A stretch of 64,000 bases of DNA from an uncultured Candidatus Saccharibacteria bacterium (GCA_964601615.1 CAZRNZ010000001.1:71658-135657); one strand, 5' to 3'. Shown: positions 6,178 to 58,542, numbered from the stretch's first letter. The notes: generated from the letters alone by a model not told the origin. Numbers and translations: made by a program.

Positions 6178-6296
6178 CTTTTTATTTTATCAGATTGGTT
6201 TCTATTGGGTGGGCGGCGAAGCCGCCTACCTATTCCTAATTTTCCGTAAAATTCCAGCTTTTAGCGGTTCCTCACTGATTTTGTTAAACTATATAA

Positions 6297-8189
6297 ATGC
6301 ATGTGATTGAGGTGGCACCGTTAATGAAAGGAGTTGGGGTTGAAAGTTTGTCTTATTACAGCTCGATTGATTATCCTCCAGGGACTCTCCTGACTGTTCC
6401 GGTTCGAAATAAAGAAATCAGAGCAGTTGTATTAAATAGTACCGAATTATCGGCTGCTAAAACTGCTGTTAGAGCAGCAACTTTTTCTCTTAAGCGTTTG
6501 CCGGCTCAGGCAAATACTTATCGTCTGTCTTCTGTTTTGGTAAATACCGCCAAAGAACTTTCCAAAAGAACCCCCTCTTCTTTTGGTGTAATTTTATTTT
6601 CAATGCTTCCACTGGAGATGCGTGAAGGTGATTTTTCTCCTTCAGATTCTTCTGAGATAAAAGAAGCCCTTGGTGAATATTCTGTTTCAGTTCTTACTGG
6701 TAGTAAAGAAGAGAGATATCTCGCATATAAAAGAAGAATTCGAGAGGCTTTTGCACATCGAGGTTCGGTAATTTTTGTATCGCCTACTGCTGAAGGATTG
6801 GCGCAAGCTGCGGAAGAATTAATGTCAGGGATTGAAGATCGATCAGTGATTCTTTCTAACGCCTTGCCAAAACGTGCCTTGAAAAAGTCTTATCAAAATA
6901 TCAATGACCTTTCTACTGCAAAACTGATACTAGCAACTCCTTCAAGATCAATTATTGATAGACCTGACATTACCGATATCATTATCGATGAATCCAGTAG
7001 CTCTCATTACAAGATGAAGCAAAGACCTTATATTAACTTTAAGGACGCTCTTTTGATTGGTGCAAAAATTTGCGGGAGAAGAGCTTTATTGGGAGATTTG
7101 GTGCATCGATCTGAAGATGAGTCTTTGCGTCGTTCTGAAATATTTTTAACTGAAGAAGAAGAACCTCATAGAATAAATTTGCCAAGCCAGCTTAGGATTA
7201 TTGATCAAAGTGCAAAAGTTGTTCTTGATAATTCATTCAAACTATTTAGTGATGAACTGCTAGAGGAAATAAAAAATAATCTAAAAAATAAACAAAATGT
7301 TTTTCTTTATGCAGCTAGGCGCGGTCTTTCGCCCGTTGTAACTTGTGGAGATTGTGGTTTTGTATTTCGGTGTCCAGACTCAGGTTCACCATATTCTTTG
7401 TTTAGCACAATGAAAGATGGTGAAGAAAAACGCTGGTTTGTCTCCCCTACTTCTGGCAGAAGGGTGCGAGCGGCAGATACTTGCCCGCAGTGCAACTCTT
7501 GGCGTTTGCGTGAGCGAGGAATTGGAATTCAACATATTCATAATGAACTTAGAAAACTTTTCCCTGAAGATAGAATATTTATCTTTGATCATTTAACTGC
7601 TTCTACTAAAACAAAAGCCAGATCAATCATTGGTGATTTTTATGAAAAGAAGGGCGCTATTTTGTTAGGTACTTCAATGGCACTGCCTTTTATTGAGAAA
7701 CCAGTTGCCTTGTCCGCTATTGTTTCTTTAGACGCCGTACGCTCAGTTCCGACTTGGCGAGTTGATGAACTTTCCTTTTCTTTGTTGATGCGACTTAGAG
7801 AAATTTCTACTGATACCGTAATTGTGCAAAGTAGGACTGAATCAGATGAGCTTATGTCGTGGGCAGCAACCGGATCAACCGAAAAATTCTTTGATAGTGA
7901 ACTTGCTTTAAGAAAAGCATTGCACTATCCGCCATTTTACAAATTGATTCATCTAACAATCGCTGGTTCTTTGGAGTCTGTGAGAAATCTTGAAGCAGAA
8001 CTCCTGCCTTTACTTGAACCATTTGGTTTTGCTTTTTATAGTGCACCAGATTCGGTAGCAAAAAAGACTGTTAGATATGGTTTGAGTCGTGTCGCTTATA
8101 CTGATTGGCCAGACAAGAAACTCTTGGAGGTTTTACGCAATCTCCCACCTTCAGTTCGAATAGAAATTGATCCAGAAAGAATAGTTTGA
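6297..8189 (+). CDS. priA: primosomal protein N' (PriA) homolog with degenerate helicase motifs
   Basis: PriA-like N-terminus and a Cys4 zinc-binding insertion (CGDCGFVFRCPD...CPQCNS). The Walker A position reads VLTGSKEERY where PriA has GVTGSGKTEVY. The DEEH box reads IIIDESSSSHYK. Confidence 0.75.
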   Translation: MHVIEVAPLMKGVGVESLSYYSSIDYPPGTLLTVPVRNKEIRAVVLNSTELSAAKTAVRAATFSLKRLPAQANTYRLSSVLVNTAKELSKRTPSSFGVILFSMLPLEMREGDFSPSDSSEIKEALGEYSVSVLTGSKEERYLAYKRRIREAFAHRGSVIFVSPTAEGLAQAAEELMSGIEDRSVILSNALPKRALKKSYQNINDLSTAKLILATPSRSIIDRPDITDIIIDESSSSHYKMKQRPYINFKDALLIGAKICGRRALLGDLVHRSEDESLRRSEIFLTEEEEPHRINLPSQLRIIDQSAKVVLDNSFKLFSDELLEEIKNNLKNKQNVFLYAARRGLSPVVTCGDCGFVFRCPDSGSPYSLFSTMKDGEEKRWFVSPTSGRRVRAADTCPQCNSWRLRERGIGIQHIHNELRKLFPEDRIFIFDHLTASTKTKARSIIGDFYEKKGAILLGTSMALPFIEKPVALSAIVSLDAVRSVPTWRVDELSFSLLMRLREISTDTVIVQSRTESDELMSWAATGSTEKFFDSELALRKALHYPPFYKLIHLTIAGSLESVRNLEAELLPLLEPFGFAFYSAPDSVAKKTVRYGLSRVAYTDWPDKKLLEVLRNLPPSVRIEIDPERIV

Positions 8190-8222
8190 AAAAACTGCTT
8201 AATAGTTATAAAGTTAGCCATT

Positions 8223-8738
8223 ATGTCTAAATTAGTAGCTGAAAATCACATTGCCCTACACTCGATTGCTGAGGAAGTAACCGAAGAAGAGATTCAGGAC
8301 GGGACTCTGTCTAAGATTGTTAAAAAGATGAAGGAGGCTCTTCGTGCCTATAATGCTGAAGGTTATGTTGGTGTTGCTATTGCTGCGCCTCAGATTGGGG
8401 TTTCTAAGAGGATTTTCTTGATTGAGGATCAGAGTAAGGATCGCGAGGACGATGTGCCAGAGATAGTGGCAGTTAATCCTCGTATCGTTAAAACTTCAAA
8501 GAAGCGAGAAGTTTTAGGTGAAGGATGTTTGTCTGTACCTGATAGGTATGGTGCGGTGGTTCGCTATACTAATGTGACACTAGAAGCACTCGACGAAAAC
8601 GGTAAACCCTTCACTCGCGGTGCCGGTGGTTTGTTGGCGCAGATATTTCAGCATGAATGTGATCACTTAGATGGAACTTTGTTTGTCGATGTGGCAGACA
8701 AGGTTTGGTTTAAAGAGGATATGGACAAACATCAGTAA
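8223..8738 (+). CDS. def: peptide deformylase
   Basis: GVAIAAPQIGVSKRIF, EGCLSVPD, and HECDHLDG motifs. Confidence 0.9.
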   Translation: MSKLVAENHIALHSIAEEVTEEEIQDGTLSKIVKKMKEALRAYNAEGYVGVAIAAPQIGVSKRIFLIEDQSKDREDDVPEIVAVNPRIVKTSKKREVLGEGCLSVPDRYGAVVRYTNVTLEALDENGKPFTRGAGGLLAQIFQHECDHLDGTLFVDVADKVWFKEDMDKHQ

Positions 8739-8739
8739 T

Positions 8740-9555
8740 ATGAAATTTATTTTCTTTGGAACACCATATGTAGCAAGGGATACTCTGGAAGCACTTCTAG
8801 AGAATGGTTTTAAGCCTGAGTTGGTAGTAAGTAATCCGGATGCGCCGCGCGGGCGTGGTCGCGTGATGACTCCGAGTGAAACTAAGGTTTTGGCAGAACA
8901 ACACAATTTGCCTGTGTACACGCCTATGCGGCTAGATGCTGAAGCTGTAGCAGAAATTAAGAAATACAATTGCGATTTTGCTATTGTGGTTGCTTACGGG
9001 AAAATCTTGCCACAAAGTTTGCTCGATATATTTCCGAAAGGAGTTTTTAATATCCATTATTCTTTGCTGCCAAAATATCGTGGCGCCTCACCAGTGGAAA
9101 CTGCACTTTTAAATAATGATGCTGAAACTGGAGTAACTATCCAAAAGATGGTTTTAGCAATGGATGCTGGTGATATTTTGGCACAAGAAAAAGTTGATGT
9201 TTTAAATGATGACAACACTACTTCCTTGCGTAAAAGATTAATTGATTTAGGGAATGAAATGTTAATAAAGGTTTTACCGGATATTCAAAGTGGAAATCTA
9301 GATTTGGTTCCTCAGGATTCTGATACTGTTTCTTTTGCTTCCAAGATGAAAAAGGAAGATGGGCTTATTTCTTTTGAAGATTCTGATTTAGAAAATTGGA
9401 GCAAATACCGAGCCTATGTTGAATGGCCAGGAACTTATTTTTTTGAGAACGGTAAAAGAATCAAAATTACTAAAGCTCACTTTGACAATGGAAAGTTTAT
9501 GATAGACAGAGTTATTCCTGAAGGTAAAAAAGAGATGGATTATAGGAGAGATTAA
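8740..9555 (+). CDS. fmt: methionyl-tRNA formyltransferase
   Basis: MKFIFFGTPYVARDTLEALLENGFKPELVVSNPDAPRGRG... The ATG at 8740 sits 1 nt after the def stop. The track ORF begins further upstream in the same frame inside def. Confidence 0.85.
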   Translation: MKFIFFGTPYVARDTLEALLENGFKPELVVSNPDAPRGRGRVMTPSETKVLAEQHNLPVYTPMRLDAEAVAEIKKYNCDFAIVVAYGKILPQSLLDIFPKGVFNIHYSLLPKYRGASPVETALLNNDAETGVTIQKMVLAMDAGDILAQEKVDVLNDDNTTSLRKRLIDLGNEMLIKVLPDIQSGNLDLVPQDSDTVSFASKMKKEDGLISFEDSDLENWSKYRAYVEWPGTYFFENGKRIKITKAHFDNGKFMIDRVIPEGKKEMDYRRD

Positions 9556-9592
9556 ACAAAACAGGCGCGCCCGAAGGGCGCGCCTGTTTTAT
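9556..9592. terminator. bidirectional intrinsic terminator AAAACAGGCGCGCCC-GAA-GGGCGCGCCTGTTTT (GAA-triloop hairpin family)
   Basis: 11-bp GC arms, GAA loop, A4/T4 flanks. Lies between convergent fmt and hpf. Confidence 0.8.
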
Positions 9593-9594
9593 CT

Positions 9595-9960
9595 CTACCG
9601 ATTCCAAATCATCATTTCTTTTATCTTTCTTGCTCCCCTTTTAAACAAAGTCTCTCTCTTTCCTTGAACACTTTGTAGTTTGTTCCAAAGTTCTTCTTTA
9701 GCTTTATCTAAAGCTTTTTCAAATGTTTCATCGGTAGCTTCGGTTCTGTGTAGATCTCCGTTAATCTGAAGATTTATTTCTACACGATGAATATTACCTT
9801 GATTGTGATGATTAGTAATTTTTTCAAATTCTAAATCACAAATTGAATGTGCCTCGCCAATAAATTTGCTAAGAGTAGATAATTTATTTTCAGCAATTAT
9901 CTTTAGATTTTCATCTACCTCAGCGTTAGTAATTTTGAAATTGATATTTGGAAATGACAT
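9595..9960 (-). CDS. hpf: ribosome hibernation-promoting factor (HPF/RaiA family)
   Basis: 121 aa. ...RVEINLQINGDLHRTEATDETFEKALDKAKEELWNKLQ... is typical of YfiA/HPF. Confidence 0.75.
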   Translation of the reverse strand: MSFPNINFKITNAEVDENLKIIAENKLSTLSKFIGEAHSICDLEFEKITNHHNQGNIHRVEINLQINGDLHRTEATDETFEKALDKAKEELWNKLQSVQGKRETLFKRGARKIKEMMIWNR

Positions 9961-15781: not shown

Positions 15782-16066
15782 TTAATTAAGCATTTCTGTC
15801 GGTGGTTTTTCCATCTCATTTTCTGAAAAAGTAGTTGGTACTATGGCAATGTTGTTAGTTTTGTTTTCTTTGCCTAATCTTCTAGCATCAACCCAGGCTT
15901 CTTCTGGGGATGAGAATGGTGGTCCGATTACGGTAACTTGAAGTGTTTCAATCTCCTCCTCTTCTTCTTCAGCAAGTTGATCAACTTCTTCCTGAAAGGA
16001 AGTTGTGTCGTCGCCAAAGATAAAGCAAATCCCCGACCAATTTTCAATTTTTACTGAATTTTTCAA
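15782..16066 (-). CDS. hypothetical acidic protein (94 aa)
   Basis: ORF bracketed by the two identical 29-nt hairpins; E-rich. Confidence 0.35.
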   Translation of the reverse strand: MKNSVKIENWSGICFIFGDDTTSFQEEVDQLAEEEEEEIETLQVTVIGPPFSSPEEAWVDARRLGKENKTNNIAIVPTTFSENEMEKPPTEMLN

Positions 16067-17969: not shown

Positions 17970-18018
17970 AAATTGTGCCTTAGAATATAACAGAAAAGTT
18001 GTTTTTAGAGAAGAAAAT

Positions 18019-18045
18019 TGCCCGACAGCGAAGCTGTCGGGCAAT
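18019..18045. terminator. hairpin TTGCCCGACAGC-GAA-GCTGTCGGGCAA downstream of the EEP gene (GAA-triloop family)
   Basis: 12-bp arms with a GCGAAGC core. Confidence 0.65.
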
Positions 18046-18051
18046 TGATTG

Positions 18052-18894
18052 TTATTCACACTCGAGAATTAATGGGCGGTGATCAGAAATTTCAGGGCTA
18101 GCCAAAGCTTCAAAAGAAGAAACTTTTACATTCTGGGACACGATGACAAAATCAGCTTCTCGTTCCTGTTTTTCATAGTAGCTGGTACGAGTGTCTGTGA
18201 TGCCGACTTCGTGGTTTAAGATTCTTCCTTTGTGATCAAAAGCAACACTGGAAGCCAGTGTATTAAGCGCTATAGTTTTTGATGTGAGGTTAAAGTCACC
18301 ACCAAGAATTATTTTTGGCTGAGCTGCAAAAGCGTTTCTGCTCTTGATTATCATGTTTGCTAAAAACAAATCAGCCTGATGAGATTGTCTTTCTCTTTCT
18401 GGAGTGTCTTCTTTATGTCCTCCGGTCCAGATTCCATGAAAGTGAGATACGATATATGCACTATTCCCTTTTCTAAAAGTCACTCCCTGAATAGCGCGAG
18501 ATGCTGGTGATCCATCATTGGTCGTGTTGTACTGACCAAATACCATATCTGAACTAAAGAAGGCGGATATATCTCTAGAAACGAACATAGCTATACCATA
18601 ACGAATTGGTAAATTGTGGCGTTCTAGATCGTGCAATAAATATTCACCATGTGCAGTGTAATATCCAGCATGATCAGGAAGCAGATTACACAGAGCTTGC
18701 CACTGACTGGCAAAAATATCTTTTTTACGGCTACCAGGAAGTGTGGGAGTAATATATTTTACTTTCACCCCTGGAATGTCATGGACTTCGGAAAAACAAA
18801 AAATATCAACTTTTGATCTATTATCCAAAATAAATTGACGAAGATCTTCCCAGAGTTCTCCGCCCCAAGTGTTAAGGAACATTATTCGCAACAT
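18052..18894 (-). CDS. endonuclease/exonuclease/phosphatase (EEP) family protein
   Basis: IILGGDFNLTSK and C-terminal SDHRPLILECE motifs. Confidence 0.7.
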   Translation of the reverse strand: MLRIMFLNTWGGELWEDLRQFILDNRSKVDIFCFSEVHDIPGVKVKYITPTLPGSRKKDIFASQWQALCNLLPDHAGYYTAHGEYLLHDLERHNLPIRYGIAMFVSRDISAFFSSDMVFGQYNTTNDGSPASRAIQGVTFRKGNSAYIVSHFHGIWTGGHKEDTPERERQSHQADLFLANMIIKSRNAFAAQPKIILGGDFNLTSKTIALNTLASSVAFDHKGRILNHEVGITDTRTSYYEKQEREADFVIVSQNVKVSSFEALASPEISDHRPLILECE

Positions 18895-19010: not shown

Positions 19011-19673
19011 ATGGAAGTTTCTATTGAACAAAGTTGGAAGAAAAGTTTAGCTTCTGAGTTTGAAAAAGAATATTTTAAGAATCTCACTACAAAAGTAAAA
19101 GAAGCTTATTTGTCATCTAGGGTTTTTCCTCCACCAAAGTTTGTTTTTAATGCGTTCAATTTATGTCCGATAAATGAAGTGAAAGTGGTAATAATTGGAC
19201 AAGATCCTTACCATGGTTTTGGACAAGCTCATGGCCTGTGTTTTTCGGTACAAGACGGAGTACCAACACCTCCTTCACTAAAAAACATTTACAAAGAAAT
19301 TAATGCTGATTTAGGTAAAGATATTCCGGTAAGTGGAAACCTCGAACACTGGGCTAAGCAGGGTGTGTTGCTTTTGAATGCTACTTTAACTGTTTATGAA
19401 TCAAAAGCTGGCTCTCATCAAGGTTGGGGTTGGGAGGAATTTACAGATGCAGCTATTAAAAAAGTCTCTGATGAAAAAGAAAATGTAGTATTTTTGCTTT
19501 GGGGAAAATACGCTCAAAATAAGTCGTTTTTGATAGATGAATCAAAACATCTAATACTCAAGGCTCCTCATCCTTCCCCGCTCTCGGCCTATAATGGTTG
19601 GTTTGGCTCTAAGCATTTTAGTAAAACAAATGACTATTTAAAGAGTGTTGATAAAAGTGAGATTGATTGGTGA
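19011..19673 (+). CDS. ung: uracil-DNA glycosylase (family 1)
   Basis: GQDPYHGFGQAHGLCFSV, GVLLLNATLTV, and HPSPLSA motifs. Confidence 0.9.
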   Translation: MEVSIEQSWKKSLASEFEKEYFKNLTTKVKEAYLSSRVFPPPKFVFNAFNLCPINEVKVVIIGQDPYHGFGQAHGLCFSVQDGVPTPPSLKNIYKEINADLGKDIPVSGNLEHWAKQGVLLLNATLTVYESKAGSHQGWGWEEFTDAAIKKVSDEKENVVFLLWGKYAQNKSFLIDESKHLILKAPHPSPLSAYNGWFGSKHFSKTNDYLKSVDKSEIDW

Positions 19674-19680
19674 AGATAAA

Positions 19681-19712
19681 AAATAGCGCCGCTCGAAGGG
19701 CGGCGCTATTTT
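19681..19712. terminator. bidirectional terminator AATAGCGCCGCTC-GAA-GGGCGGCGCTATTTT
   Basis: GAA-triloop GC hairpin between convergent ung and the GH18 gene. Confidence 0.8.
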
Positions 19713-21403: not shown

Positions 21404-21433
21404 GCGGGGATACCAAAGGTATCCCCGCTTTTT
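21404..21433. terminator. intrinsic terminator GCGGGGATACC-AAA-GGTATCCCCGC plus T-run
   Basis: Follows the SLT gene. Confidence 0.75.
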
Positions 21434-44248: not shown

Positions 44249-44284
44249 TGGCGGCGGCGAAGCGAAGCTTCGCCGCCTTTTTCT
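44249..44284. terminator. terminator GGCGGCGAAGC-GAA-GCTTCGCCGCC plus T-run (two GCGAAGC cores)
   Basis: 11-bp arms with a GAA loop. Confidence 0.75.
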
Positions 44285-44352
44285 TTATCTTGCCAATTTG
44301 CCCTATTTTGTTATTGTTGCGACAGATTCGGCACATTAACTAGGAGGTGAAA

Positions 44353-44862
44353 ATGCTTAAAATCATCATCTCTTCCGAAGTTGTCGGGAAGGCTCTGATG
44401 TACGAGTATCTTGGTAAGAAAGGTGATCGTAAGTTTGTTCCTACTTATCAAGTGTATGTGTACGACGGTTCTCACTGTATTTTTAAATTTACTGTCACCA
44501 GACAATCTGCTAAAGAGGTTTTTCGTCAAGGTGAAGCTTTAGATTATGGAGAAAATGGAGAATGTCCGCCAGCTGATTTCTACCTAGGTAGAATCACTGA
44601 GTCAGGCAGACTTGGCTTCTCCATAATGCTTTATGAGAATTGGTGTCCAGCTAAAGAATCTTTGATTGGACGTTCGCATTTTATCCGAAAAGGCGTAAAG
44701 ATTCATAAAGGACCAGGTTCATCACTCGGCTGTATGATGGTTGCTGGTGGACAGCGTGGTTATAAAAGATTTGTCAAAGCTTTCACTCGTATCAATGAGA
44801 TTCATGGTCATATATTTCGTGTGGTTGTGGAAGATAGAGGTTTACTAAAAACCCCTGCTTAG
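44353..44862 (+). CDS. hypothetical protein with an H...S-x-G-C motif reminiscent of L,D-transpeptidase-like (YkuD/Tlde1, DUF2778-like) catalytic domains
   Basis: AGGAGG RBS 5 nt before ATG 44353; the track's GTG 44347 overlaps the RBS. No signal peptide. ...HFIRKGVKIHKGPGSSLGCMMVAGGQRGYKRF... Own promoter region and flanking terminators. Confidence 0.4.
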   Translation: MLKIIISSEVVGKALMYEYLGKKGDRKFVPTYQVYVYDGSHCIFKFTVTRQSAKEVFRQGEALDYGENGECPPADFYLGRITESGRLGFSIMLYENWCPAKESLIGRSHFIRKGVKIHKGPGSSLGCMMVAGGQRGYKRFVKAFTRINEIHGHIFRVVVEDRGLLKTPA

Positions 44863-44892
44863 GCTGGGGTTTATTTTTTAAGTAAACAAACA

Positions 44893-44926
44893 AAAAGAGG
44901 CGCGCCCTTTGGGCGCGCCTCTTTTT
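44893..44926. terminator. bidirectional terminator AAAAAGAGGCGCGCCC-TTT-GGGCGCGCCTCTTTTT
   Basis: Lies between the LDT-like gene and rpoC. Confidence 0.8.
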
Positions 44927-44934: not shown

Positions 44935-47900
44935 TTAGTTAGTCTCCTCAGAAACTGACTTAATCATGTCGTACTTTCTTGATCCCTTGAATCCAGAACC
45001 AGCTGGAATTAGGCGACCAATAATAACGTTTTCCATTAAGCCAGAAAGAGTATCCTTACTTCCCTTCACTGCAGCGTTAATCAAAACACGAGTTGTGTTC
45101 TGGAATGATGCGGCAGATAGGAATGACTTACGTGAAAGTGAAGTCTCGGTAATACCAAGGATAAGTTTATCAGCCTTAGCAGTTTCCTTTCCTTCATCCT
45201 TAAGTTTCATGTTTGCTTCTGCAAAGATCCACTCTTCTATTACTTCACCGATTGTAAAGTTAGAATCACCAGTTTCAGTAATCTTAACTCGACTCATCAT
45301 CTGCTTAACGATAAGTTCTATGTGCTTACGAGCGATGGTTACACCCTGAAGTTCATAAATCTTGTTAATTTCAGAAATGATGTAATCCTGAGTCATTTCA
45401 CGTCCACCGTACTTAAACAATTCTGGCAAGTGAGCAGAACCGTCAGTCATAAGTTGGCCTGGATAAATTGTGTCGCCAATAGAAACTGTCACAACACGAC
45501 GGTAGCTAACTTCGTACTCTAGATTATCAGAAGTCTTCTTAGCGTACTTAGCACCCTTTTCTGGAGTAACTACGATTACCTTCTCGCGTCCTTCACGACG
45601 AATGTCAGTAACAATACCGCCTGTCTTAGACACGATAGCCGGAATCTTTGGCTGACGTTTTTCAAATACTTCTTCTACACGAGGAAGACCCTGGGTTACG
45701 TCTCCACCAACTGACGCGGCACCTCCGGCATGCTTAGTGTTCATCGTAAGCTGAGTACCTGGCTCACCAATCGCTTGAGCAGCCACTGTACCTACAGCTT
45801 CTCCTATATCAACAACTTGATTAGTCGTAAGGTCGTGTCCATAACACTGCTGACAAACTCCACGCAAGGTTGCACAAGTCATTGGAGAGCGTACTACTAC
45901 AGATGCAGCAGTAGATCCTTCAAGAGCAATAGCGTCGCGACGTGATAGTAGATGTCCTTTCTTGAATAGAACGTTACCCTTTGTATCAACAGCATCTTCT
46001 GCTAGTACGCGGCCCTTAATTGCCTTTGAGAAAGCAATCTCGATACCAGAAGCAGAAATACGACTGATCTGAGTTCCGTTCTTAGTCTTACAATCAGCTT
46101 CAGTAACGATAGCGTCCTGTGCAACCACGAAGAGACGACGAGTCAAGTAACCAGCCTTTGCCGTCTGCAAAGCGGTGTCGGCTAGACCTTTACGAGAACC
46201 GTGAGTAGTAATGAAGTACTCAAGTGGTGTCATACCTTCCTTCATAGAAGATAGAACTGGGAACTCAAGTGTCTCACCACGAGTGTTTACAATAAGACCC
46301 TTCATACCAGCCATCTGACCGATTTGTCCAAGAGAACCACGAGCACCAGACTTCCACATTTCAAAAGCAGAACCGTTTTCGTCTAGAGTCTCAGGAAGGA
46401 TTCCTTCTAGCTCGCTCTTAGCTTGGTGCCAGATTTCTACAATCATACGACGACGTTCATCACGAGAGATAAGTCCTTCGTCAAAGTGAGCGAATACTTC
46501 TAGTTCGCGATTACGAGCCTTAGTAATGATTTCAGGCTTCTTCTCAGGAACAACCACTTCATTGATTCCCCAAGTTGTACCTGATTGAGTAGCATAAGTG
46601 AAACCAAACTTCTTCAAGCGGTCAACAATCGGAGGTACAGCGTCTGTTCCTCGGTCATCGATAATATCAATAATGATATTGAACAAAGTCTTTTGCACAA
46701 TAACATCGTTGATGAAATCATAATCACTTGGAAGTACACTGTTGAATAGTAGACGACCTACTGATGTTTCAAACAACTTCCCTTCGTATTGCTTGTATTT
46801 TGGTGTATCAGTAGCAAGAACTTTAATCTTGGCACGGAAATCAACTATACCGTAATCGTAAGCGTTGATGGCATCGTTTGGTGATGAGAAGAACTTTCCT
46901 TCACCTTTAGCACCTTCAATAGTCTTAGTCATCCAGTAAGCACCAAGAGCCATGTCTAGTAGCTTTTCAGAAACTACCGGCTCAGATGAACCTGGCTTTA
47001 GAATGTTCTTGTTAGCAGAAATAATTTCCTTTGCTTCAAGTTGAGCTTCTTCTGAAAGTGGTACGTGAACAGCCATCTGGTCACCGTCGAAGTCGGCGTT
47101 GAAAGCGCGACAAACTAGTGGGTGAACCTGAATAGCATTACCTTCAATAAGTACCGGACGGAAAGCCTGGATACCCTGACGGTGAAGAGTTGGAGCACGG
47201 TTTAGAAGTACGTGCTTGTTACGAATAACATCTTCTAGAATTGCCCAAACTTCTGGAACCCCGTCTTCGATAAGACGACCAGCTCCGCGAATGTTGTAAG
47301 CAAGTTCTTGCTTCAAGAGTTCAGATATGATGAATGGACGGAACAATTCCAGTGCCATGTGTTTTGGTAGACCACATTGATCAAGATCAAGGTCTGGACC
47401 AATAACAATCACTGAACGTCCAGAATAGTCCACACGCTTACCAAGAAGATTTTGACGGAAGTAACCCTGCTTGCTCTTTAGGTAGTCAGAAAGTGACTTC
47501 AAAGGACGACGTTGTGCCTGACTCATCATTGAGTAAGCACTATTGCCGTGACGGATTGAGTTATCAATCAAAGCATCCACAGCTTCTTGCAAGATACGCT
47601 TTTCGTTACGCAAGATAACGTCTGGCGCCATGATGTCGATAAGCTTCTTTAGGCGGTTGTTTCGGTTGATAACACGACGATAAAGATCGTTTAGATCTGA
47701 AGAAGCGTGACGTCCACCTTCAAGAGCAACCATCGGTCGAAGTGCTGGAGGGATAACTGGTAGACGATTTAGGAACATCCATTCAGGGCGAACACCTGAG
47801 TTAACCATTCCCCTTACTAGACCAAGACGCTTATCAAGCTTTGCTCGTTCAAGAGCACCAGCTTTTTCACGCTGTTCTTCTAGGCGGTTTTGTAGTTCCT

Positions 47901-48627
47901 TAAGATCAATTTGCTTGAATAGTTCAAACACGCTTTCAGCACCAATCTTGGCTTCAAAAAGAGTTCCGTACTTGATAGAAAACTTGTGATATTTGTTTTC
48001 ATCAAGAACTGTCCCCTGCTGCACAGAGTTAATTTCTTTCTTAACAGCATCCATTCTTTCCTTAAGTTCAGCCAAAGCATTTTCGTTTGAAAGCTCTTTT
48101 GACTTAACTTTGAATTCAGTACTCAGCTCAGCAAGTAAACGAGCTCTTTCTGATTCAGAAACTTTAGTAACGATATATCCAGCGAAGTAGATAACCTTTT
48201 CGATATCTGCTGCTGAGATTCCCAAAATAAGGGCGATACGTGAAGGAACTCCACGCAAGAACCAAATGTGAGATACTGGTACACAAAGCTCAATGTGTCC
48301 CATGCGTTCACGACGAACGATAGCGCGAGTAATTTCTACTCCACACTTCTCACAAGTAATTCCCTTGTAACGGATACCACGGTATTTCTTACAAGAACAT
48401 TCGTAGTCCTCAACTGGACCGAAGATTCTTTCGTCGAATAGGCCATGCTTTTCTGGACGTTGAGTTCGATAGTTGATGGTTTCTGGCTTAGTTACCTCAC
48501 CGAAAGACCAGTCAAGGATTTTATCTGGACTAGCTAGCTTCAAAGATATTTCAGAGAAAGCTTTTTGTGCTCCGCCTTTGCGTGGTGCAAATCCACGGTC
48601 ACGCTTTGTTTTGTTTTCTGTTTCCAT
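44935..48627 (-). CDS. rpoC: DNA-directed RNA polymerase subunit beta'
   Basis: 1230 aa; zinc-binding CxxC...[13 protein letters not shown] catalytic motif. Confidence 0.95.
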
Positions 48628-52084: not shown

Positions 52085-52750
52085 TTATTCTCCACGTTGT
52101 TTTTCGATTTCTTTGTGGTTTCCACTGAGATAAACTTCTGGGACTTTATAAGTCTTTCCTTTGTGTTTAAAAGTTTCTGGGCGTGTGTACATTTCACCGC
52201 TTGAGACCCTCTGGTCTTCAAGAGATTCAAAGGTGCCGAGTACACCAGGTATTTCCCTACTCACTGCATCAATTATAGTGAGGGCCGGAAGTTCTCCACC
52301 AGTTAATACAAAATTTCCTACTGATATTTCTTCAGCCTCAAGGATTTCTTTGACGCGAGAATCGATCCCCTCGTACCTCCCAGAAATCAGTACCAAATTG
52401 TCGTATGTGGTAGCGAATTCTTTGGCAACAGATTGATCAAACATTCTGCCGCGTGGAGACATAATGATGGTTTTTACACCTTTTTTCTTTCTACCCACAG
52501 CTTTATTCCAAGCTTTCAAAACTGGCTCTGCTTTCATTACCATTCCCGGCCCTCCACCGTATGGGCGGTCGTCGACTTTTTTATGTTTGTCGTCTGAATA
52601 ATCTCGGGGATTAAAATATGAAACTGAGATTTTTTTGCCGCGTACTTTTGCTCCTTTACCCTTTTCGGTTTTTTGAGCACGACCAATCACACTGGCGTCT
52701 GTGTACGCTTGGCAGATTTCTGGGAAAAGTGTGATGACGTGGAAGTTCAT
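52085..52750 (-). CDS. trmD: tRNA (guanine37-N1)-methyltransferase
   Basis: NPRDYSDDKHKKVDDRPYGGGPGMVM and the SPOUT knot region. Confidence 0.9.
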   Translation of the reverse strand: MNFHVITLFPEICQAYTDASVIGRAQKTEKGKGAKVRGKKISVSYFNPRDYSDDKHKKVDDRPYGGGPGMVMKAEPVLKAWNKAVGRKKKGVKTIIMSPRGRMFDQSVAKEFATTYDNLVLISGRYEGIDSRVKEILEAEEISVGNFVLTGGELPALTIIDAVSREIPGVLGTFESLEDQRVSSGEMYTRPETFKHKGKTYKVPEVYLSGNHKEIEKQRGE

Positions 52751-52772: not shown

Positions 52773-52812
52773 TTGATATAAACAAGAGTGGGCGGAACCG
52801 AAGGTTCCGCCC
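52773..52812. terminator. hairpin AGAGTGGGCGGAACC-GAA-GGTTCCGCCCACTCTTTT
   Basis: 15-bp arms with a GAA loop, between the KH gene and trmD. Confidence 0.7.
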
Positions 52813-52830
52813 ACTCTTTTATTCGACAAT

Positions 52831-53175
52831 TTAGATTTTCAGGTCGTCGATAGCTTGGTCTAGAGATTTAGACTCATTAGAAGAATTTTCTTCTGTTAAA
52901 GATGAGGTTTGCTCATGATTTACTCGTCCACCTTCTGGTTCGTTAATTTTTAGGTTAACGCGAGCATCATGCTTCATTCCAACTACACGCAATAGAGTAC
53001 GGATAGCCTTGGCAGTATTGCCAGAGCGACCAATTATTTTACCCATATCGTCAGCGTGTACATCGAGTGTCAAAAGTACTCCCATTTCATCCACTGTGCG
53101 ATTAGTTCTTACCGCTTCAGGATGATCAACCAAGGCCTTCACTAGAGTCTCCAAAAATTGCTGGTCTTCTTGCAT
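52831..53175 (-). CDS. KH-domain RNA-binding protein (KhpA/YlqC-like)
   Basis: MGKIIGRSGNTAKAIRTLL matches the GxxG KH motif. Confidence 0.75.
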   Translation of the reverse strand: MQEDQQFLETLVKALVDHPEAVRTNRTVDEMGVLLTLDVHADDMGKIIGRSGNTAKAIRTLLRVVGMKHDARVNLKINEPEGGRVNHEQTSSLTEENSSNESKSLDQAIDDLKI

Positions 53176-53708: not shown

Positions 53709-53807
53709 CATAATTGCGCACAAAGATAACAAATTAGCGGTATTTGTCAAATTATGTTACGGTACACGGTATCATTTATGTCAAATAAAACTTACGAAGG
53801 AGTGCTG

Positions 53808-55712
53808 ATGGTGCGTGGAAAAGGCACTGGATTTATCAAGTTTCCTGATTTTGAGGAAGATATAATCATCGCTCCAGAGAAACTAAATTTCGCTCTAGAT
53901 AGCGATGTTGTGGAGTTTGAGATTCTAGAAAAGAACAAAGATGGTCGTCATGAGGGACGTGTCGTGCGAGTTATTGAATCTGCTCGTGAAGAGTTCATCG
54001 GAACTGTGAAAGAAAAGTTTGGTCGTGGTGCTAAGGATTATTATTTCCAGCCTGACAATAAGCGTATTCATGTCCGTTTTTCTCTTAAGTCAGAAGATGC
54101 TGATAAGCTTGGTATGAAGGTTGTGGCTAAGATTGCGCGTTGGAGTGATTCTACTCGTGATCCTCTTGGAGTAATTACTGAAGTTATTGGAAAAGCTGGC
54201 GAACATGAGGTTGAGATGCAGGCGATTATTCGTAGCGGTGGTTTCTCCGAAAATTTTCCTGCTTCAGTTGCAGAAGCGGCTCAAAAACTTTATACAGATA
54301 AAGAGGTTATATTTGCTGAAGCTATAAAAGACCCTAAGCGTCGCGATATGCGAGATGTCACTACTTTTACTATTGACCCGAAGGATGCTAAGGACTTCGA
54401 CGACGCTCTTTCGTTTCAAGTTTTAGAAAATGGCAATATTGAAATCGGCGTTCATATTGCTGATGTGTCACATTATGTTCGTGAAGGAGATGATATTGAT
54501 AAAGAGGCGCAAGATCGGGCTACTTCTATTTATTTGGTAGATAGAGTAATTCCGATGTTGCCAGAGGTTTTGTCTAATGACCTTTGTTCTCTTCGTCCTA
54601 ACGAAGACAGACTTTCTTTTTCAGCTGTTTTTGAGATGACAAAAAATGCCGAAGTTGTAGGCGAATGGTATGGCCAGACTGTCATTCATTCAAACCGCCG
54701 TTTTACTTACGAAGATGCACAAGAAATTATTACAAATAATTCTGGTGATTATCTAGCAGAGTTAAATGAGATGATGAGACTCTCTCGTATTATTCGCAAA
54801 AATAGATTTGAAGAAGGAGCGATTGCTTTTGAGCAACCAGAAGTAAAGTTTGAGTTGGATGAGACTGGTAAACCAATTCGTGTTTATACCAAGGAGCGCA
54901 CTGAGACAATGATGATGATTGAGGACTTTATGCTTCTGGCTAACCAGAGTGTTGCTACCTATGTTCATAAAAAAACTAAAGCCAAAGGCAAAGATGCTGT
55001 TTATGTTTATCGTATTCACGATGTACCTGATCCAGAAAGAATCGAAGATCTTGCGGTATTTATTCGAGCACTTGGTTATGAATTTAAAACTGAGGGAGGA
55101 ATTGTTGATGCGCGCGATATAAATAAGATGTTAAAAAGTATCGAAGGTAAGCCTGAAGAGGCGCTGATTAAAACTGCCACAATTCGTTCAATGGCAAAGG
55201 CTATTTATTCCACCAAGAATATTGGACACTTTGGTTTGGCGTTTAAATTTTATGCGCACTTTACTTCCCCAATTCGTCGTTATCCTGATGTGATGGCACA
55301 CAGACTCCTACGTCGTCATCTAGATGACTCACATATTTCTGGACAGGAAATTGCCAAGTTTGAAAAAATGTCTGAACATTCTTCTCAGAGAGAAATGGAA
55401 GCTGTTCGTGCTGAAAGAGATAGTATTAAGTACAAACAAGTTGAATTCATGTTGCCAAAACTTGGTCAAGAATTTGATGGAACAATTTCTGGTGTAAGTG
55501 ATTGGGGTATTTATGTAGAAGAAAAAGAATCTCGTGCAGAAGGAATGGTGAGACTTTCTTCAATGAAAGATGACTTCTATGAACACTTGGCTGCCGCATA
55601 TTCTATTAAAGGTCAAAGAAACGGCAAGGTATTCCGACTTGGAGATAAGGTTCGATTTAAGATTGTTCGTGCTGACTTAGAAGAAAGACAGATGGATTAC
55701 GAGTTGATTTAA
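53808..55712 (+). CDS. rnr: ribonuclease R (RNase II family; CSD-RNB-S1)
   Basis: GAAGGAG RBS before ATG 53808 (MVRGKGTGFIKF). RNB motifs HFGLA...YAHFTSPIRRYPD. C-terminal S1. Confidence 0.85.
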   Translation: MVRGKGTGFIKFPDFEEDIIIAPEKLNFALDSDVVEFEILEKNKDGRHEGRVVRVIESAREEFIGTVKEKFGRGAKDYYFQPDNKRIHVRFSLKSEDADKLGMKVVAKIARWSDSTRDPLGVITEVIGKAGEHEVEMQAIIRSGGFSENFPASVAEAAQKLYTDKEVIFAEAIKDPKRRDMRDVTTFTIDPKDAKDFDDALSFQVLENGNIEIGVHIADVSHYVREGDDIDKEAQDRATSIYLVDRVIPMLPEVLSNDLCSLRPNEDRLSFSAVFEMTKNAEVVGEWYGQTVIHSNRRFTYEDAQEIITNNSGDYLAELNEMMRLSRIIRKNRFEEGAIAFEQPEVKFELDETGKPIRVYTKERTETMMMIEDFMLLANQSVATYVHKKTKAKGKDAVYVYRIHDVPDPERIEDLAVFIRALGYEFKTEGGIVDARDINKMLKSIEGKPEEALIKTATIRSMAKAIYSTKNIGHFGLAFKFYAHFTSPIRRYPDVMAHRLLRRHLDDSHISGQEIAKFEKMSEHSSQREMEAVRAERDSIKYKQVEFMLPKLGQEFDGTISGVSDWGIYVEEKESRAEGMVRLSSMKDDFYEHLAAAYSIKGQRNGKVFRLGDKVRFKIVRADLEERQMDYELI

Positions 55713-55740
55713 GTCTTGGATAGAGGGATTTAAATAACAA

Positions 55741-55772
55741 AAGTGCGGCGCCTTCGGCGCCGCACTTTTGTT
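55741..55772. terminator. bidirectional terminator AAAGTGCGGCGCC-TTC-GGCGCCGCACTTTT
   Basis: 12-bp GC stem between rnr and smc. Confidence 0.8.
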
Positions 55773-55782
55773 ATTTAGAATT

Positions 55783-58047
55783 CTATTTTGCACTCTCAAG
55801 TGCTTGGTCTAATTTTACTGATAGGAGTTTTGAAACTCCGTCGCCCATCATAGTTACTCCATAAAGTATGCCAGCTCGCGACATTGTCTCGCGGTTGTGT
55901 GTAATAAGTATTAGTTGTGATTTCTGGGAAAGTGCTTCAATCATATCCCCATAGCGACGACTATTAGCTTCATCTAGTGCTGCATCAGTTTCATCTAGAA
56001 TCACAAATAGTGGTGGATTTACTTGACTCATGGCAAAGATAAGAGCGATAGAAACTAAAGCTCTTTCTCCACCAGAGAGCATATCAAGACCTTTTACTCT
56101 TTTGTTTGGTAGTTTAACACCAATCTCAATTCCCTCTTCTTTTGATTCTTCTTCAATTTCATCGTTTTCTTCTCCAAGAGACAAGTCTTCTAGGGAAGTT
56201 TTTTTCTTATTCTTTATTTTCACTTTTTGTAATTCGGCCTCTCCACCACCAAACATAAGGCTAAAGAATCTATTAAACTCTGAATTTATTTTTTCAATAC
56301 CAACACTAAAGCGTTCATTAAGTTGGTCACTTAAGTCGGAAATAAGTTGCTCAAGTTTGTTTACTGATTCAGTTAAGTCGGTAATTTCACGTACAAGAAA
56401 ATCATCGCGTTCTTTAACGGTTTGGTATTCTTTAATAATATCGTCGTTTGCTCCACCAAGCTCTTCTAAGCGGATTTTCATTTTCTCTAAATCACGTCTA
56501 CGAGAGCGCTGTTTATCACGTGATTCTTTAACAATAGAATTTTTCTCTAAAGTCTTTCCGTCTTCAATTATTTCGTAAGTAAAATAATCTGAAGCTGCTC
56601 TACCGATTAGTGCCACAGCTTCTTGGAGTTCACGCTTAAATTCATCTCTATCTCTAAAGATGACTTCAAGTTCGTATTCAAAACGAGAAAGATTATTTTC
56701 GTTTTCGCGGCGCTCGTTTACGATACGGAATACCTCTCTCTCAGCTTCGCGACTTTCACCTTGATCATTTTCTATCGATAGGCGAACTTTATTGTATTCA
56801 GTCTCTGCCTTTTCTTCTGCTGTTGAAACAGCAGATAACTTTTTATCTAGTTCTGCCTTATCTTTTTCGAGTGAAGTTTTCTCTTTTTCTTCAGCTATAG
56901 TATCTGAAGAAGGATTTTCAATTGTCCTAGCTAAGAAGTGTTTTAGTGAACCAATTATATCTTGTAGTGAACGTCGAAGTAGTGGCACGTCCTCAAGTTT
57001 TATTGCTCTTTCTACTTCTTTTTCGGTATTAGAAACTAATTTCTCTATTTCCGAATAAGGGATTGAGATATTGGCATGACTCACAGTACTCTTTTGAGTC
57101 AAACGTCTATCAATAAAAGCAATTTGACCTTCGACAGCACCAATCTGTCTAAGTAGCTCCTGACGCTCATTTCTGGCTTCTCTGAGGTTCTTTTCAACCA
57201 AGATGAGGGCATCTCTTTGTTCGTCTTGTTTTTTGCTTTCCAGAACAGATTTAGCTTTTACCAAAAGCTCATCTAATTCTTCCAGCTTCTTCTTAATCGG
57301 ATTTATTTCTTTAGCTAGTCTATCTTGCTCGAAAGCCAAATAAACATCTTCTCTTTTTAAATACTCAGCGTAGGCACCGCGAAGGCTGTCACGCAGTTCG
57401 GTCGCTTTTTCTATTTTCTTTACCTGTTTTTCTAGGAAGCGTAAATGAGGGGCGACTTCGCGACGCAATCCTTCAACTTTATTTATATTTTCGCGCGTTT
57501 TATTAAGTTTCTTTTCTGCTTCGGTACGCTTAAATTGATACACCTTAAGACCAAGGGCATCCTCAATCATTTCTCTACGTTCTTTTGAAGAAGCAGAAAG
57601 GATTCTGTCTGCTTCACCTTGAGAAATAATATGGTGTCCAGAAGGGCCAATATTTGCCGCTGCCAGCAATTCCTGAACATCTTTTAGTCTTACTTGGCTG
57701 CCGTTTATTTGATATTCGTTAACTCCATCTCTATGAACAATTCTCTCTAAAATTATTTCATCAAAATCTAATGGAAAAACACGATTTTTGTTATTTAAAG
57801 AAATAGATACAGAAGCACGGTTTCCTCTAGATACTTGGTCAGAACCGCCCCAAATCAAATCCTCTCCACGCTTTCCACGCATTCTTGATGGAGATTGTTC
57901 GCCTAAAACAAAACGAAAAGACTCCGCAACGTTTGATTTTCCTGAACCATTCGGACCAACAATTGCTGTAATGGAAGAAGAAAATTCTAACTCGCTCTTT
58001 TTAGCGAAAGATTTAAATCCATTAATTGTCAGGTCTTTGAGATACAT
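55783..58047 (-). CDS. smc: SMC-family chromosome condensation ATPase, compact form (754 aa)
   Basis: Canonical SMC head N-terminus (MYLKDLTINGFKSFAKKSELEF...GPNGSGKSNVAESFRFVLGEQS). C-terminal signature LSGGERALVSIALIFAM...LFVILDETDAALD. About two-thirds the usual SMC length. Confidence 0.75.
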   Translation of the reverse strand: MYLKDLTINGFKSFAKKSELEFSSSITAIVGPNGSGKSNVAESFRFVLGEQSPSRMRGKRGEDLIWGGSDQVSRGNRASVSISLNNKNRVFPLDFDEIILERIVHRDGVNEYQINGSQVRLKDVQELLAAANIGPSGHHIISQGEADRILSASSKERREMIEDALGLKVYQFKRTEAEKKLNKTRENINKVEGLRREVAPHLRFLEKQVKKIEKATELRDSLRGAYAEYLKREDVYLAFEQDRLAKEINPIKKKLEELDELLVKAKSVLESKKQDEQRDALILVEKNLREARNERQELLRQIGAVEGQIAFIDRRLTQKSTVSHANISIPYSEIEKLVSNTEKEVERAIKLEDVPLLRRSLQDIIGSLKHFLARTIENPSSDTIAEEKEKTSLEKDKAELDKKLSAVSTAEEKAETEYNKVRLSIENDQGESREAEREVFRIVNERRENENNLSRFEYELEVIFRDRDEFKRELQEAVALIGRAASDYFTYEIIEDGKTLEKNSIVKESRDKQRSRRRDLEKMKIRLEELGGANDDIIKEYQTVKERDDFLVREITDLTESVNKLEQLISDLSDQLNERFSVGIEKINSEFNRFFSLMFGGGEAELQKVKIKNKKKTSLEDLSLGEENDEIEEESKEEGIEIGVKLPNKRVKGLDMLSGGERALVSIALIFAMSQVNPPLFVILDETDAALDEANSRRYGDMIEALSQKSQLILITHNRETMSRAGILYGVTMMGDGVSKLLSVKLDQALESAK

Positions 58048-58054
58048 TGTTTAT

Positions 58055-58432
58055 TTAGTCAGCACAGTTTCCTGCACTTATTGTTTCTTCCGTCATTTCT
58101 CTGGTACCAGTTAATCTAAAGCAGTTTCCTTCATTCTCATAGTTATAAACATACACTCCTGTGCTTGTAGGGTCAGTAGGAACCTCTCTAAAAAGTCCTG
58201 CTGTAACCAAATCATTCAATGAGCTTGGATATTGACCTTGTGATGCACCGTAAATAGCGACTGAGGCTGCAATTTCTTGAATATCAGACATACGTTTTGT
58301 GTCACGAGCTTTTTTTCTTGAGTCTTCAAAAGATGCAAAAACAATCATTGCTAAAATTCCCATGATCGCTATTGCAACTAATATTTCTACTAGAGTAAAA
58401 CCTCGCTTTGTATTTAATAGATATTTCATCAA
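58055..58432 (-). CDS. type IV pilin-like protein (prepilin N-terminal cleavage/methylation domain)
   Basis: MMKYLLNTKRG/FTLVEILVAIAIMGILAMIV class III signal. C-terminal Cys pair. Confidence 0.7.
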   Translation of the reverse strand: MMKYLLNTKRGFTLVEILVAIAIMGILAMIVFASFEDSRKKARDTKRMSDIQEIAASVAIYGASQGQYPSSLNDLVTAGLFREVPTDPTSTGVYVYNYENEGNCFRLTGTREMTEETISAGNCAD

Positions 58433-58506
58433 ACTAATTTTAACTTAAATTAGCAGGTTTGGTAGGGTTTGTTGTGTATGTAAACCTTATAAGGCGAAAT
58501 TTATAA

Positions 58507-58542
58507 AAAACGAGCGGTGCCTTCGGCGCCGCTCGTTTTATT
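58507..58542. terminator. terminator AAAAAACGAGCGGTGCC-TTC-GGCGCCGCTCGTTTTATTT
   Basis: GC hairpin with a T-run, between rnc and the pilin gene. Confidence 0.75.

Follow-up and report, generated by a model that had tools for sequence, protein, structure and literature searches.

The 64,000-nucleotide stretch analysed here (GCA_964601615.1, CAZRNZ010000001.1:71658-135657; hereafter the window, with coordinates counted from its first base) carries a family of GC-rich hairpins with three-nucleotide loops, most of which lie between genes and seven of which lie inside open reading frames (ORFs). The window has a G+C content of 38.3% over its 64 kb, rather than the about 40% given in the initial annotation of this region, and encodes rpoB, rpoC, rpoD, dnaG, hisS, truB, trmD, rnhB and prmC, together with ribosomal protein S16, an SMC protein, RNase R and an AddA-like helicase-nuclease. 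Its RpoC is 89-91% identical to that of metagenome-assembled genomes (MAGs) labelled Paceibacterota, Nomurabacteria or 'Patescibacteria group', and 64% identical to that of a complete Campbellbacteria genome. These matches to Paceibacterota/Patescibacteria MAGs indicate that the window is part of the chromosome of a bacterium of the candidate phyla radiation (CPR/Patescibacteria, Paceibacterota). A phage origin was rejected, the rpoBC region having no match in the phage collection and the gene content being chromosomal.

Exact matching of the RpoC and aldolase proteins returned nothing, and that of PrmC yielded only a 1.3-kb Logan contig carrying prmC (L031), which is 100% identical to the window; Logan run SRR16797978 has an identical contig. 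No close strains were found, and the nearest other relatives (designated here by L numbers) show a DNA identity of 68-75%, about 70%, with good gene-order synteny and G+C contents that span 37% to 58%. At 38% G+C, the window nevertheless encodes an RpoC that is approximately 90% identical to those of genomes of 44-58% G+C (L001-L003, L008, L014). The composition shift inside this narrow clade is thus large, and the GC-rich hairpins are most conspicuous in the AT-richest genome. Searches of the window with Rfam (gathering thresholds) and ARAGORN returned two tRNAs only and no match at the hairpins, and the GC-skew profile, checked for a replication-strand bias, has no switch inside the window.

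Perfect inverted repeats are strongly over-represented in the window: 61 have arms of at least 8 bp, compared with 13.5 in dinucleotide shuffles, and 34 have arms of at least 10 bp, compared with 0.86 (100 dinucleotide shuffles, maximum 3). Twelve of the latter possess a GC-rich inner stem (0.06 in the shuffles), and the loop is 3 nt long in 10 of these 12. With one mismatch allowed the window contains 31 GC-rich hairpins, 22 of them with triloops, and every one of these 22 is closed by a 5'-C...G-3' pair (P ~2e-7 versus G-C closure). The loops are GAA (9), TTC (7), AAA (4), TTT (1) and ATG (1). GAA/TTC loops hence make up 16/22 (P ~8e-17 from the base composition of the window) and AAA/TTT loops, which are one G:C>A:T transition away from GAA/TTC, 5/22, with ATG the remaining 1/22. 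The GC core measures 9-16 bp, typically 10-11 bp, and perfect arm length ranges from 6 to 22 bp. The heptamer GCGAAGC, which is the hairpin tip itself, was counted 21 times against 3.1 expected in a k-mer census of the window; GC-GAA-GC tips occur in about 10 copies and CC-GAA-GG tips in about 6. The constrained loop reported in the initial annotation, GAA or TTC and occasionally AAA or TTT, was therefore borne out, and all 16 sites on its list contain the hairpin described. Its view of the copies as near-identical was not: shared 8-mers reach 10-11 occurrences at most and are part of the tip, no longer motif is common to the stems, neither stems nor flanks have a consensus, and what the copies have in common is only the C-NNN-G tip and the A/T flanks, while the stem sequences differ. 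Perfection of the repeats held for most sites, those at 19683-19707, 58510-58538 and 32393-32415 carrying one G.T pair each. Purine loops lie on the + strand in 14/22 cases (P = 0.29), so no significant strand bias exists. Read in the sense of the transcript, the two tips are about equally frequent (GAA 12 and UUC 10 in the window, GAA 8 and UUC 7 in relatives); tip orientation relative to transcription is therefore either unselected or randomised by loop inversion.

The same analysis was applied to 360 kb from 17 loci of the clade and to 241 kb of distant CPR sequence. In the clade sample 80 of 159 GC-rich hairpins are triloops, of which 75 are C-G closed and none G-C closed (0/80), with GAA/TTC loops in 38 and AAA/TTT loops in 14 of the 80. 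In the distant CPR sample only 12 of 44 GC-rich hairpins are triloops, these are without loop preference, and tetraloops dominate. A fold-based terminator census, used for proportions only because it counts some hairpins repeatedly, gave perfect Watson-Crick stems in 58% (window), 39% (clade relatives) and 21% (distant CPR), and triloop shares of 53%, 27% and 19%, respectively. The tip design is specific to the clade, with the window genome as its extreme case.

Seventeen of the sites are intergenic, and 15 of these lie at gene 3' ends (8 in convergent gaps, 7 one-way), a clustering for which the initial annotation had proposed a test. The 13 convergent junctions of the window carry a hairpin of this class in 8 cases, another strong hairpin in 4 and a gene overlap in 1. 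The pattern-based terminator scan, run separately and in which the triloop hairpins were the top output, extends stems into the A/T tracts and so misses several tails; tails were recounted from the GC core, the T-tract score being the T count in the 8 nt following the core on each strand (58507-58539 left out). At convergent sites each strand has 5-7 T of 8, and at one-way sites the T-tract is mostly on the strand of the upstream gene, more weakly at 18016 and 23988. The predicted RNA folding energies of the terminator hairpins range from -21 to -34 kcal/mol, with z scores of -4 to -7.7. Stable GC-rich stem-loops, well within the definition of an intrinsic terminator (stem of at least 5 bp, loop of 3-8 nt), stand just past stop codons, and are followed by T-tracts in the 15-site core although not at 6208-6230 and 32391-32415. 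This placement, the strand-matched T-tracts and the stable fold give the hairpins the anatomy of intrinsic terminators, and we consider it probable (roughly 0.8) that the 15 of 17 intergenic copies act as intrinsic, Rho-independent terminators, bidirectional where genes converge. The hairpins themselves, their statistics, placement, strand-appropriate T-tracts, positional conservation and compensatory changes are observed directly; from them we infer that transcripts would actually end there. The bidirectional use suggested in the initial annotation agrees with position and flanks at the convergent gene pairs.

Between the convergent genes 8671..9555(+) and 9595..9960(-), the bidirectional terminator-type hairpin at 9558..9590 has arms of 15 bp, a GAA loop, 6 T on the + and 7 on the - strand, and a predicted RNA folding energy of -28.9 (+) and -33.5 (-) with z ~-7. 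Further hairpins are of the same bidirectional type. The one at 19680..19712 (loop GAA, one T.G pair; genes 19011..19673(+) and 19739..20905(-)) has orthologous hairpins in L016 and L018 whose inner stems differ. That at 27417..27459 (arms 20 bp, loop TTC) is flanked by 26867..27397(+) and 27473..27892(-) and has 6 T on each strand. The hairpin at 35536..35568, with a GAA loop on 15-bp arms and T counts of 6 and 7, separates 34781..35515(+) from the addA-like gene 35582..38524(-); L013 (gaa loop), L016 and L008 also have hairpins at this junction. At 40740..40770, where the Na/H exchanger gene 38623..40719(+) converges with rpoD 40784..42130(-), the arms are 14 bp long, the loop is AAA and the T counts are 5 and 7. 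The hairpin at 44892..44926 (arms 16 bp, + strand loop TTT) separates 44347..44862(+) from rpoC 44935..48627(-), and in L002 and L003 the 3' end of rpoC has a triloop (ttc) hairpin built on another stem. The RNase R gene 53754..55712(+) and the SMC gene 55783..58047(-) flank 55731..55777, which has arms of 22 bp and the loop TTC.

The T-tract is confined to a single strand at two one-way sites, both with arms of 11 bp and T counts of 7 (+) and 1 (-). The hairpin at 21404..21428 (+; loop AAA), an intergenic site missing from the list of 16, follows 21032..21397(+), so that the T-tract is on the gene strand, and its orthologue in L020 is GCGGGATATC with a gaa loop. The hairpin at 44253..44277 (+; loop GAA) comes after the small ORF 43996-44196(+). 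This previously unlisted ORF of 66 codons encodes a hydrophobic peptide and has GGGAGG upstream, with the hairpin downstream. On the - strand, 18016..18046 (arms 14 bp, transcript loop UUC) is located 5 nt past the stop of 18052..18894(-), and its stem, GCCCGACAGC, is identical at the orthologous place in L020 (15582), where the loop is inverted from UUC to GAA in the transcript. The hairpin at 25572..25602 (-; arms 14 bp, transcript loop UUC) follows 25607..25864(-) and has 4 T on the + strand and 7 on the -, the gene strand. A further terminator-type hairpin, 58507..58539 (-; + strand loop TTC, one T.G pair), comes after 58556..59248(-), with A-/T-tracts on both sides.

At 22916..22954, 3' of the class I fructose-bisphosphate aldolase gene 22966..23979(-), a terminator-type hairpin has arms of 18 bp and a + strand loop AAA; L016, L017-19 and L020 have orthologous hairpins with other stems. 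The hairpin at 23988..24032 (arms 21 bp, loop TTC) occupies the other side of that gene, between it and the ABC permease gene 24037..24798(-). Here the outer arms ATCAACAC/GTGTTGAT (8 bp) are kept in the window, L016 (9950-9988), L020 (9951-9989) and L030 (2860-2898), and the inner GC stems at this junction in the four genomes are AAAGGGCGCC, GGCGGACAGC, AGGGCGCGTC and GGCGGGCAGC, each matched on the opposite arm. The right arm also holds a TTGATA hexamer upstream of the aldolase gene, which could, from its sequence, be a candidate -35 element of the promoter of this gene. The hairpin at 52784..52818 (-; arms 16 bp, transcript loop UUC), between the KH-domain gene 52831..53175(-) and trmD 52085..52750(-), has the stem GAGTGGGCGGAACC in the window and AAGCGGGCGGAATC (ttc loop) in L008/L014, and the differences are compensated. 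Hairpins at the same junctions in relatives, with stems changed on both arms, argue strongly for vertical inheritance of the structure.

Two intergenic copies have no T-tract. The short copy at 6208..6230 (GGCGGC gaa GCCGCC, or 10 pairs if one G.T is admitted) is placed in a divergent gap, in the promoter region between 5926..6177(-) and 6297..8189(+); for this copy the initial annotation had already remarked on the missing T-run, and rightly, and the protein binding that it suggested there would be a possible role. The hairpin at 32391..32415 (+; loop AAA, one G.T pair) lies 6 nt past the hisS stop, before an exonuclease gene, and is not present in relatives; the A-/T-run flanks that were ascribed to the family accompany most copies but not this one. 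Alongside the GC-rich triloop class, the window contains a second terminator-like class (4909-4936, 5460-5489, 12800-12827, 22866-22893 and 60275-60304) with 12-15 bp stems of mixed composition and AT-rich 4-nt loops.

Seven copies lie inside ORFs (21830-21856, 25963-25987, 26140-26168, 26591-26613, 38292-38318, 61195-61221 and the spacerless 32793-32820) and were overlooked in the initial annotation. The hairpin 21830..21856(+) covers codons 106-115 of truB (arms 12 bp, sense loop UUC); L037 has the compensated GGGAGGCGCGGC (ttc loop) at the same codons and L034 a different hairpin of 20 pairs there. The gene prmC contains three: 'a', 25963..25987(+), at codons 15-23 (arms 11 bp, loop GAA); 'b', 26140..26168(+), at codons 74-83, within the linker that precedes the LDLCxGSG motif (arms 13 bp, sense loop UUC); and 'c', 26591..26613(+), of nine pairs and one A.C mismatch (loop UUC), which is a perfect 12-bp hairpin in the same alignment columns of L037. 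In the addA-like helicase gene, 38292..38318(-) (arms 12 bp) spans motif Ia (AGAHAMRERL) and is perfect in the window, L008 and L037, with variation only at the first loop base, a third codon position. The hairpin 61195..61221(-) covers rnhB codons 112-121 (arms 12 bp, sense loop UUC). Finally, the 3'-5' exonuclease gene carries a spacerless, perfect palindrome of 28 bp with a central CTGCAG (32793..32820, +), which encodes SADGLQAVRW; over its 24-nt core, five genomes of 38-56% G+C agree at all synonymous sites, and in four other genomes that have the same peptide the core is scrambled.

Under synonymous-codon shuffling, which keeps every protein and the codon usage of each gene, 0.24 intragenic hairpins with perfect arms of at least 11 bp are expected and 9 are observed, and for GC-rich intragenic hairpins the figures are 0.01 and 6. 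These shuffles rule out amino-acid sequence and codon usage as the cause of the coding hairpins, and an origin by insertion is ruled out by codon alignments in which the orthologues have the same length. T counts at the intragenic copies are mostly 1-5, with one antisense tail of 6, so that T-tracts are mostly missing. Inside coding sequence, termination cannot be the role of these copies. Aligned orthologous coding sequence (296 kb) contains 22 hairpin sites, 8 of them shared between lineages, and prmC, which is 2.5% of the sequence scanned, holds 5 of these 8. A generally relaxed constraint is an unlikely cause, since the addA-like gene matches prmC in divergence and is four times longer, yet has only one shared site.

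A homology search gave roughly 1,500 prmC homologues. Ten prmC orthologues were compared, and hairpin 'a' is found in all ten that were fetched. Its paired cells amount to 97.3%, compared with 81.8% in shuffles (none of 500 as high) and 37-53% with a slid partner; 7 of the 11 pairs change on both sides, RNAalifold independently predicts the same helix, and wobble intermediates are seen in L038 and L039. The covarying pairs are complementary codons, namely A(GCG)/R(CGC), L(TTG)/Q(CAA), E(GAA)/F(TTC) and K(AAA)/F(TTT), and further S(AGC)/A(GCT), C(TGC)/A(GCA) and T(ACC)/G(GGT). Site 'b' has a hairpin in 8/10 orthologues, with unrelated stems, and is without one in the shorter orthologues L020 and L038. 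Overall prmC (25920-26666) and its orthologues in L016, L020, L030, L032, L034, L036, L037, L038 and L039 form a hot spot of coding hairpins, with at least 6 alignment sites that carry hairpins of different stems in two or more lineages, and with perfect arms that reach 18-19 bp in L016 and L032. The gaps upstream of prmC measure only 18-55 bp and hairpin 'a' lies about 43 nt into the gene; given so short a gap, one may guess that this hairpin acts as a 5' stabiliser of a nearly leaderless prmC mRNA.

Two readings of the coding copies may be considered, and both may act. The copies may be RNA elements under selection, which is favoured by their concentration in prmC and by a wobble bias towards the sense strand (G.U 13 versus A.C 4, P ~0.025), or they may be by-products of arm conversion by template switching at the DNA level, which is favoured by the tip shared inside and outside genes, by sites that are either perfect or degraded, and by loop inversion. 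Tentatively, one could go further and suppose either that a single DNA-level process shapes both terminators and coding sequences, with hairpins capped by the hyper-stable d(C-GAA-G) triloop folding in single-stranded DNA, and template switching continually converting their arms to perfect complementarity and inverting their loops, or that the coding hairpins represent a class of conserved, cis-acting RNA elements not described before, in which at least five shared prmC sites and those in truB, the addA-like gene and the exonuclease gene would have been kept over long periods by covarying codon pairs. If true, either version would mean that nucleic-acid structure dictates amino-acid pairs (A/R, L/Q, E/F, S/A) in essential genes.

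For the intergenic copies we propose that the nascent RNA would fold into a stem of 9-16 bp, almost purely G-C, in which a C-G pair closes the 3-nt loop, and that the U-tract directly after the stem would then allow release of the transcript. In the 40-75 bp gap between convergent genes, both directions could be served by a single perfect palindrome that has an A-tract at one end and a T-tract at the other. The likeness among the copies would stem from a clade-specific design rule, a C-GAA-G tip or its complement C-UUC-G with AAA/UUU loops one transition away, and not from the copying of an element; the hairpins are inherited in place, their stems evolving by paired changes on both arms. Several points weigh against termination as the complete account. 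The copies without a T-tract, that is 6208-6230 and 32391-32415 between genes and, for the most part, the seven intragenic ones, mean that termination cannot account for the whole family. The hairpin at 58507-58539 has a C.A mismatch, and no wobble, in the transcribed strand; the palindromy at 23988, 27417 and 55731 extends over 20-22 bp, deeper into the flanks than termination requires; and termination itself has been deduced from sequence alone. In addition, r(GCGAAAGC) has a melting temperature (Tm) of only 39 C, compared with 76.5 C for its DNA counterpart (PMC13037366), so that RNA stability alone does not obviously explain the choice of GAA. As our best guess, the tip preference might reflect a DNA-level process added to selection on the RNA, namely intrastrand hairpin folding, most stable for d(C-GAA-G), followed by template switching that homogenises arms and inverts loops, which would also explain the perfect arms and the copies inside genes.

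DNA-level maintenance of the palindromes is one alternative. It supposes that the stable d(C-GAA-G) tip nucleates intrastrand folding at replication, that template switching homogenises the arms and inverts the spacer, and that GC-biased repair enriches G+C, the terminators being co-opted products and the coding copies by-products; it would add to terminator function more than replace it, and in this full form we regard it as possible but doubtful. Its appeal lies in the tip, which none of the other 64 DNA triloops equals in stability and which has the required C-G closure and a GC..GC or CC..GG second pair (PMC13037366), in the persistence of the same rule in coding sequence, where termination is irrelevant (GAA 8 and TTC 7 of 30), in a tip orientation that is random relative to the transcript, and in AAA/TTT loops that are a single transition from GAA/TTC. 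The inverted loop on an unchanged stem at 18016 versus L020, the coding copies that alter amino acids on both arms, and the exonuclease and addA sites, which are perfect in some lineages and fully degraded in others, point the same way; template switching is documented to homogenise arms and invert spacers (PMC8604942), and conversion has been proposed for coding palindromes (PMC6649704). This evidence is offset by the uneven distribution of the coding hairpins, the 5/8 lineage-shared sites in prmC suggesting gene-specific selection, by wobbles that favour the sense strand and hence RNA, by the one-way hairpins at 21404 and 44253, whose palindromes do not extend into the flanks, and by the non-significant strand bias of the purine loops. 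Alternatively, the structures might protect or process RNA 3' ends by blocking 3'-5' exonucleases without being terminators themselves. Very stable GC stems at gene 3' ends, an RNase R gene within the window and the copy without a T-tract at 32391, past hisS and ahead of the gene that follows, would suit such a role, but the strand-matched T-tracts right after the stems are a termination signature and stabilisation can coexist with termination, which makes protection as the sole function improbable.

The initial annotation had left open a propagating family similar to repetitive extragenic palindromes (REPs) or strong selection for one terminator design, and the second proved the better alternative. 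Spread of a mobile palindromic family, whether like REPs and bacterial interspersed mosaic elements (BIMEs), miniature inverted-repeat transposable elements (MITEs) or Rickettsia palindromic elements (RPEs), could draw on the many copies with one architecture, often between convergent genes, and on copies in coding sequence, as with the RPEs. It is nevertheless very unlikely, the stems and flanks being without consensus, insertion polymorphism, terminal repeats and target duplications being absent, hairpins with changed and compensated stems occupying orthologous junctions across genera, and the intragenic copies having the same length as their orthologues. A REP/MITE-like origin was thus already contradicted by unshared stems and by orthologous positions in relatives of ~70% identity. 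The stems are unrelated and lack the shared consensus, including the 5' tetranucleotide, of REPs; the arms are mostly perfect and seven copies lie in ORFs, at variance with an extragenic, imperfect repeat; and the near-identical copies, terminal inverted repeats, target-site duplication and added length of MITEs, RPEs and Correia elements were not seen. No RAYT/IS200-like transposase was noticed among the ORFs scanned in the 64 kb, in which no dedicated search for one was made. CPR bacteria are thought to depend on DNA uptake, and the hairpins might accordingly be uptake signals (USS/DUS-like) or sites for dimeric proteins in the form of inverted pairs. Uptake signals do form terminator hairpins in Neisseria and Pasteurellaceae (PMC1852404). 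Against this, such signals consist of one over-represented motif of 9-12 nt that occurs as inverted pairs and single copies, and no such k-mer exists in the window: no 8-12-mer is common to the stems, none is over-represented outside the hairpins, and stem sequences diverge freely between orthologues while pairing is kept, so that we give this explanation hardly any weight.

A few other inverted repeats were recorded. The sole repeated stem sequence in the window is an AT-richer triloop core (AAACCGGACAAT ttt ATTGTCCGGTTT) present at 15746-15776 and 16146-16180, on either side of the small gene 15782..16066(-). A perfect palindrome of 56 bp (20917-20972; 27-bp arms, 2-nt centre) occupies the divergent promoter gap between the GH18-like and DPBB-domain genes, and its core GATTTCTTTCA...TGAAAGAAATC is conserved in sequence in L016 (13151-13178) and L018 (3289-3321); it looks like a candidate operator for a dimeric regulator. 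In L001, three copies of CTCCTTATCA tcga TGATAAGGAG (13826-13855, 14301-14336 and 14475-14506), located in a 1.25-kb gap downstream of rpoC, look like candidate repeated operator sites.

Taken as terminators, the hairpins would show where transcription units end in an uncultured CPR lineage, and the rule of a C-GAA-G / C-UUC-G triloop on a GC stem of 9-16 bp would improve terminator and operon prediction there. A terminator tip that coincides with the optimum for DNA rather than RNA hairpins, in either orientation, also offers a clean test of RNA-level versus DNA-level shaping. The coding copies suggest nucleic-acid pairing that over-rides amino-acid choice in housekeeping genes, most clearly in prmC, with codon-pair covariation that can mimic positive selection. 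We found no paper that joins Patescibacteria and intrinsic terminators, nor one that relates triloops to terminators in a relevant way.

The terminator core is a stereotyped, clade-specific form of an ordinary thing. Like known bidirectional intrinsic terminators, the hairpins have GC-rich stem-loops, flanking A- and T-tracts, short convergent gaps and T-tracts on the transcribed strand or strands; they differ in the nearly uniform 3-nt loop (GAA/UUC or AAA/UUU), the invariable 5'-C...G-3' closure and the nearly always perfect Watson-Crick stems. Terminator stems of Bacillus cereus show compensatory evolution (PMC5381666), and the paired changes of the window hairpins under vertical inheritance resemble it. 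What is unusual is the invariant C-G-closed GAA/UUC tip and the coding copies with covariation at the codon level. The REP/BIME elements of enterobacteria and pseudomonads resemble the present family in being abundant palindromes at gene 3' ends, often between convergent genes, for which roles in termination and mRNA stability have been proposed. REPs, however, share a consensus, are imperfect and by definition extragenic, and owe their mobility to RAYT transposases, whereas in the family described here the stems are unrelated, the arms perfect and the positions conserved between orthologues, and some copies lie in coding sequence.

Mini-hairpins arise in DNA only with GNA loops, GAA being the most stable of the 64 triloops (Tm about 76 C) and GC..GC and CC..GG the accepted closing combinations (PMC13037366), and the stability of DNA triloops depends on the C-G closing pair (PMC3201870). 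The family shares with the d(GCGAAGC)/d(GCGNAGC) mini-hairpin of Hirao and colleagues the C-GAA-G tip and the GC..GC or CC..GG next pair (PMC13037366, PMC3201870): the two heptamers observed are the accepted combinations, which makes the link to d(GCGAAGC) drawn in the initial annotation an apt one, and GAA is present on one strand in 16 of the 22 window triloops, all C-G closed. In contrast to the mini-hairpin, the motif here caps stems of 9-16 bp in double-stranded chromosomal DNA, half of the copies show the complement TTC on the transcribed strand, and AAA/TTT loops, which form no mini-hairpins in DNA, are also found; terminators are unmentioned in the review of d(GCGAAGC) (PMC13037366). 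The match of the tip to the DNA optimum suggests that a DNA-level contribution stays in play. Template switching at quasipalindromes in E. coli and yeast produces arm homogenisation, spacer inversion and clustered amino-acid changes (PMC7202029, PMC8604942), all of which are seen here; elsewhere these are rare events, and here persistent action together with selection for position and G+C would be needed. The coding copies, for their part, would be a bacterial counterpart to the unexplained palindromes of hairworm mitochondria: mitochondrial genes of Nematomorpha contain coding palindromes with arms of up to 284 bp, for which template-switch conversion has been proposed (PMC6649704). In both systems perfect inverted repeats stand in functional genes in excess over expectation, both arms are translated, and the repeats are gained and lost between lineages; a perfect-or-absent pattern is seen here at the exonuclease and addA sites, with wobble intermediates at prmC 'a'. 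The copies described here differ in being bacterial, in their arms of 9-19 bp, their fixed triloop tip and their concentration in prmC, and in the conservation of some sites, with covariation, across 10 genomes.

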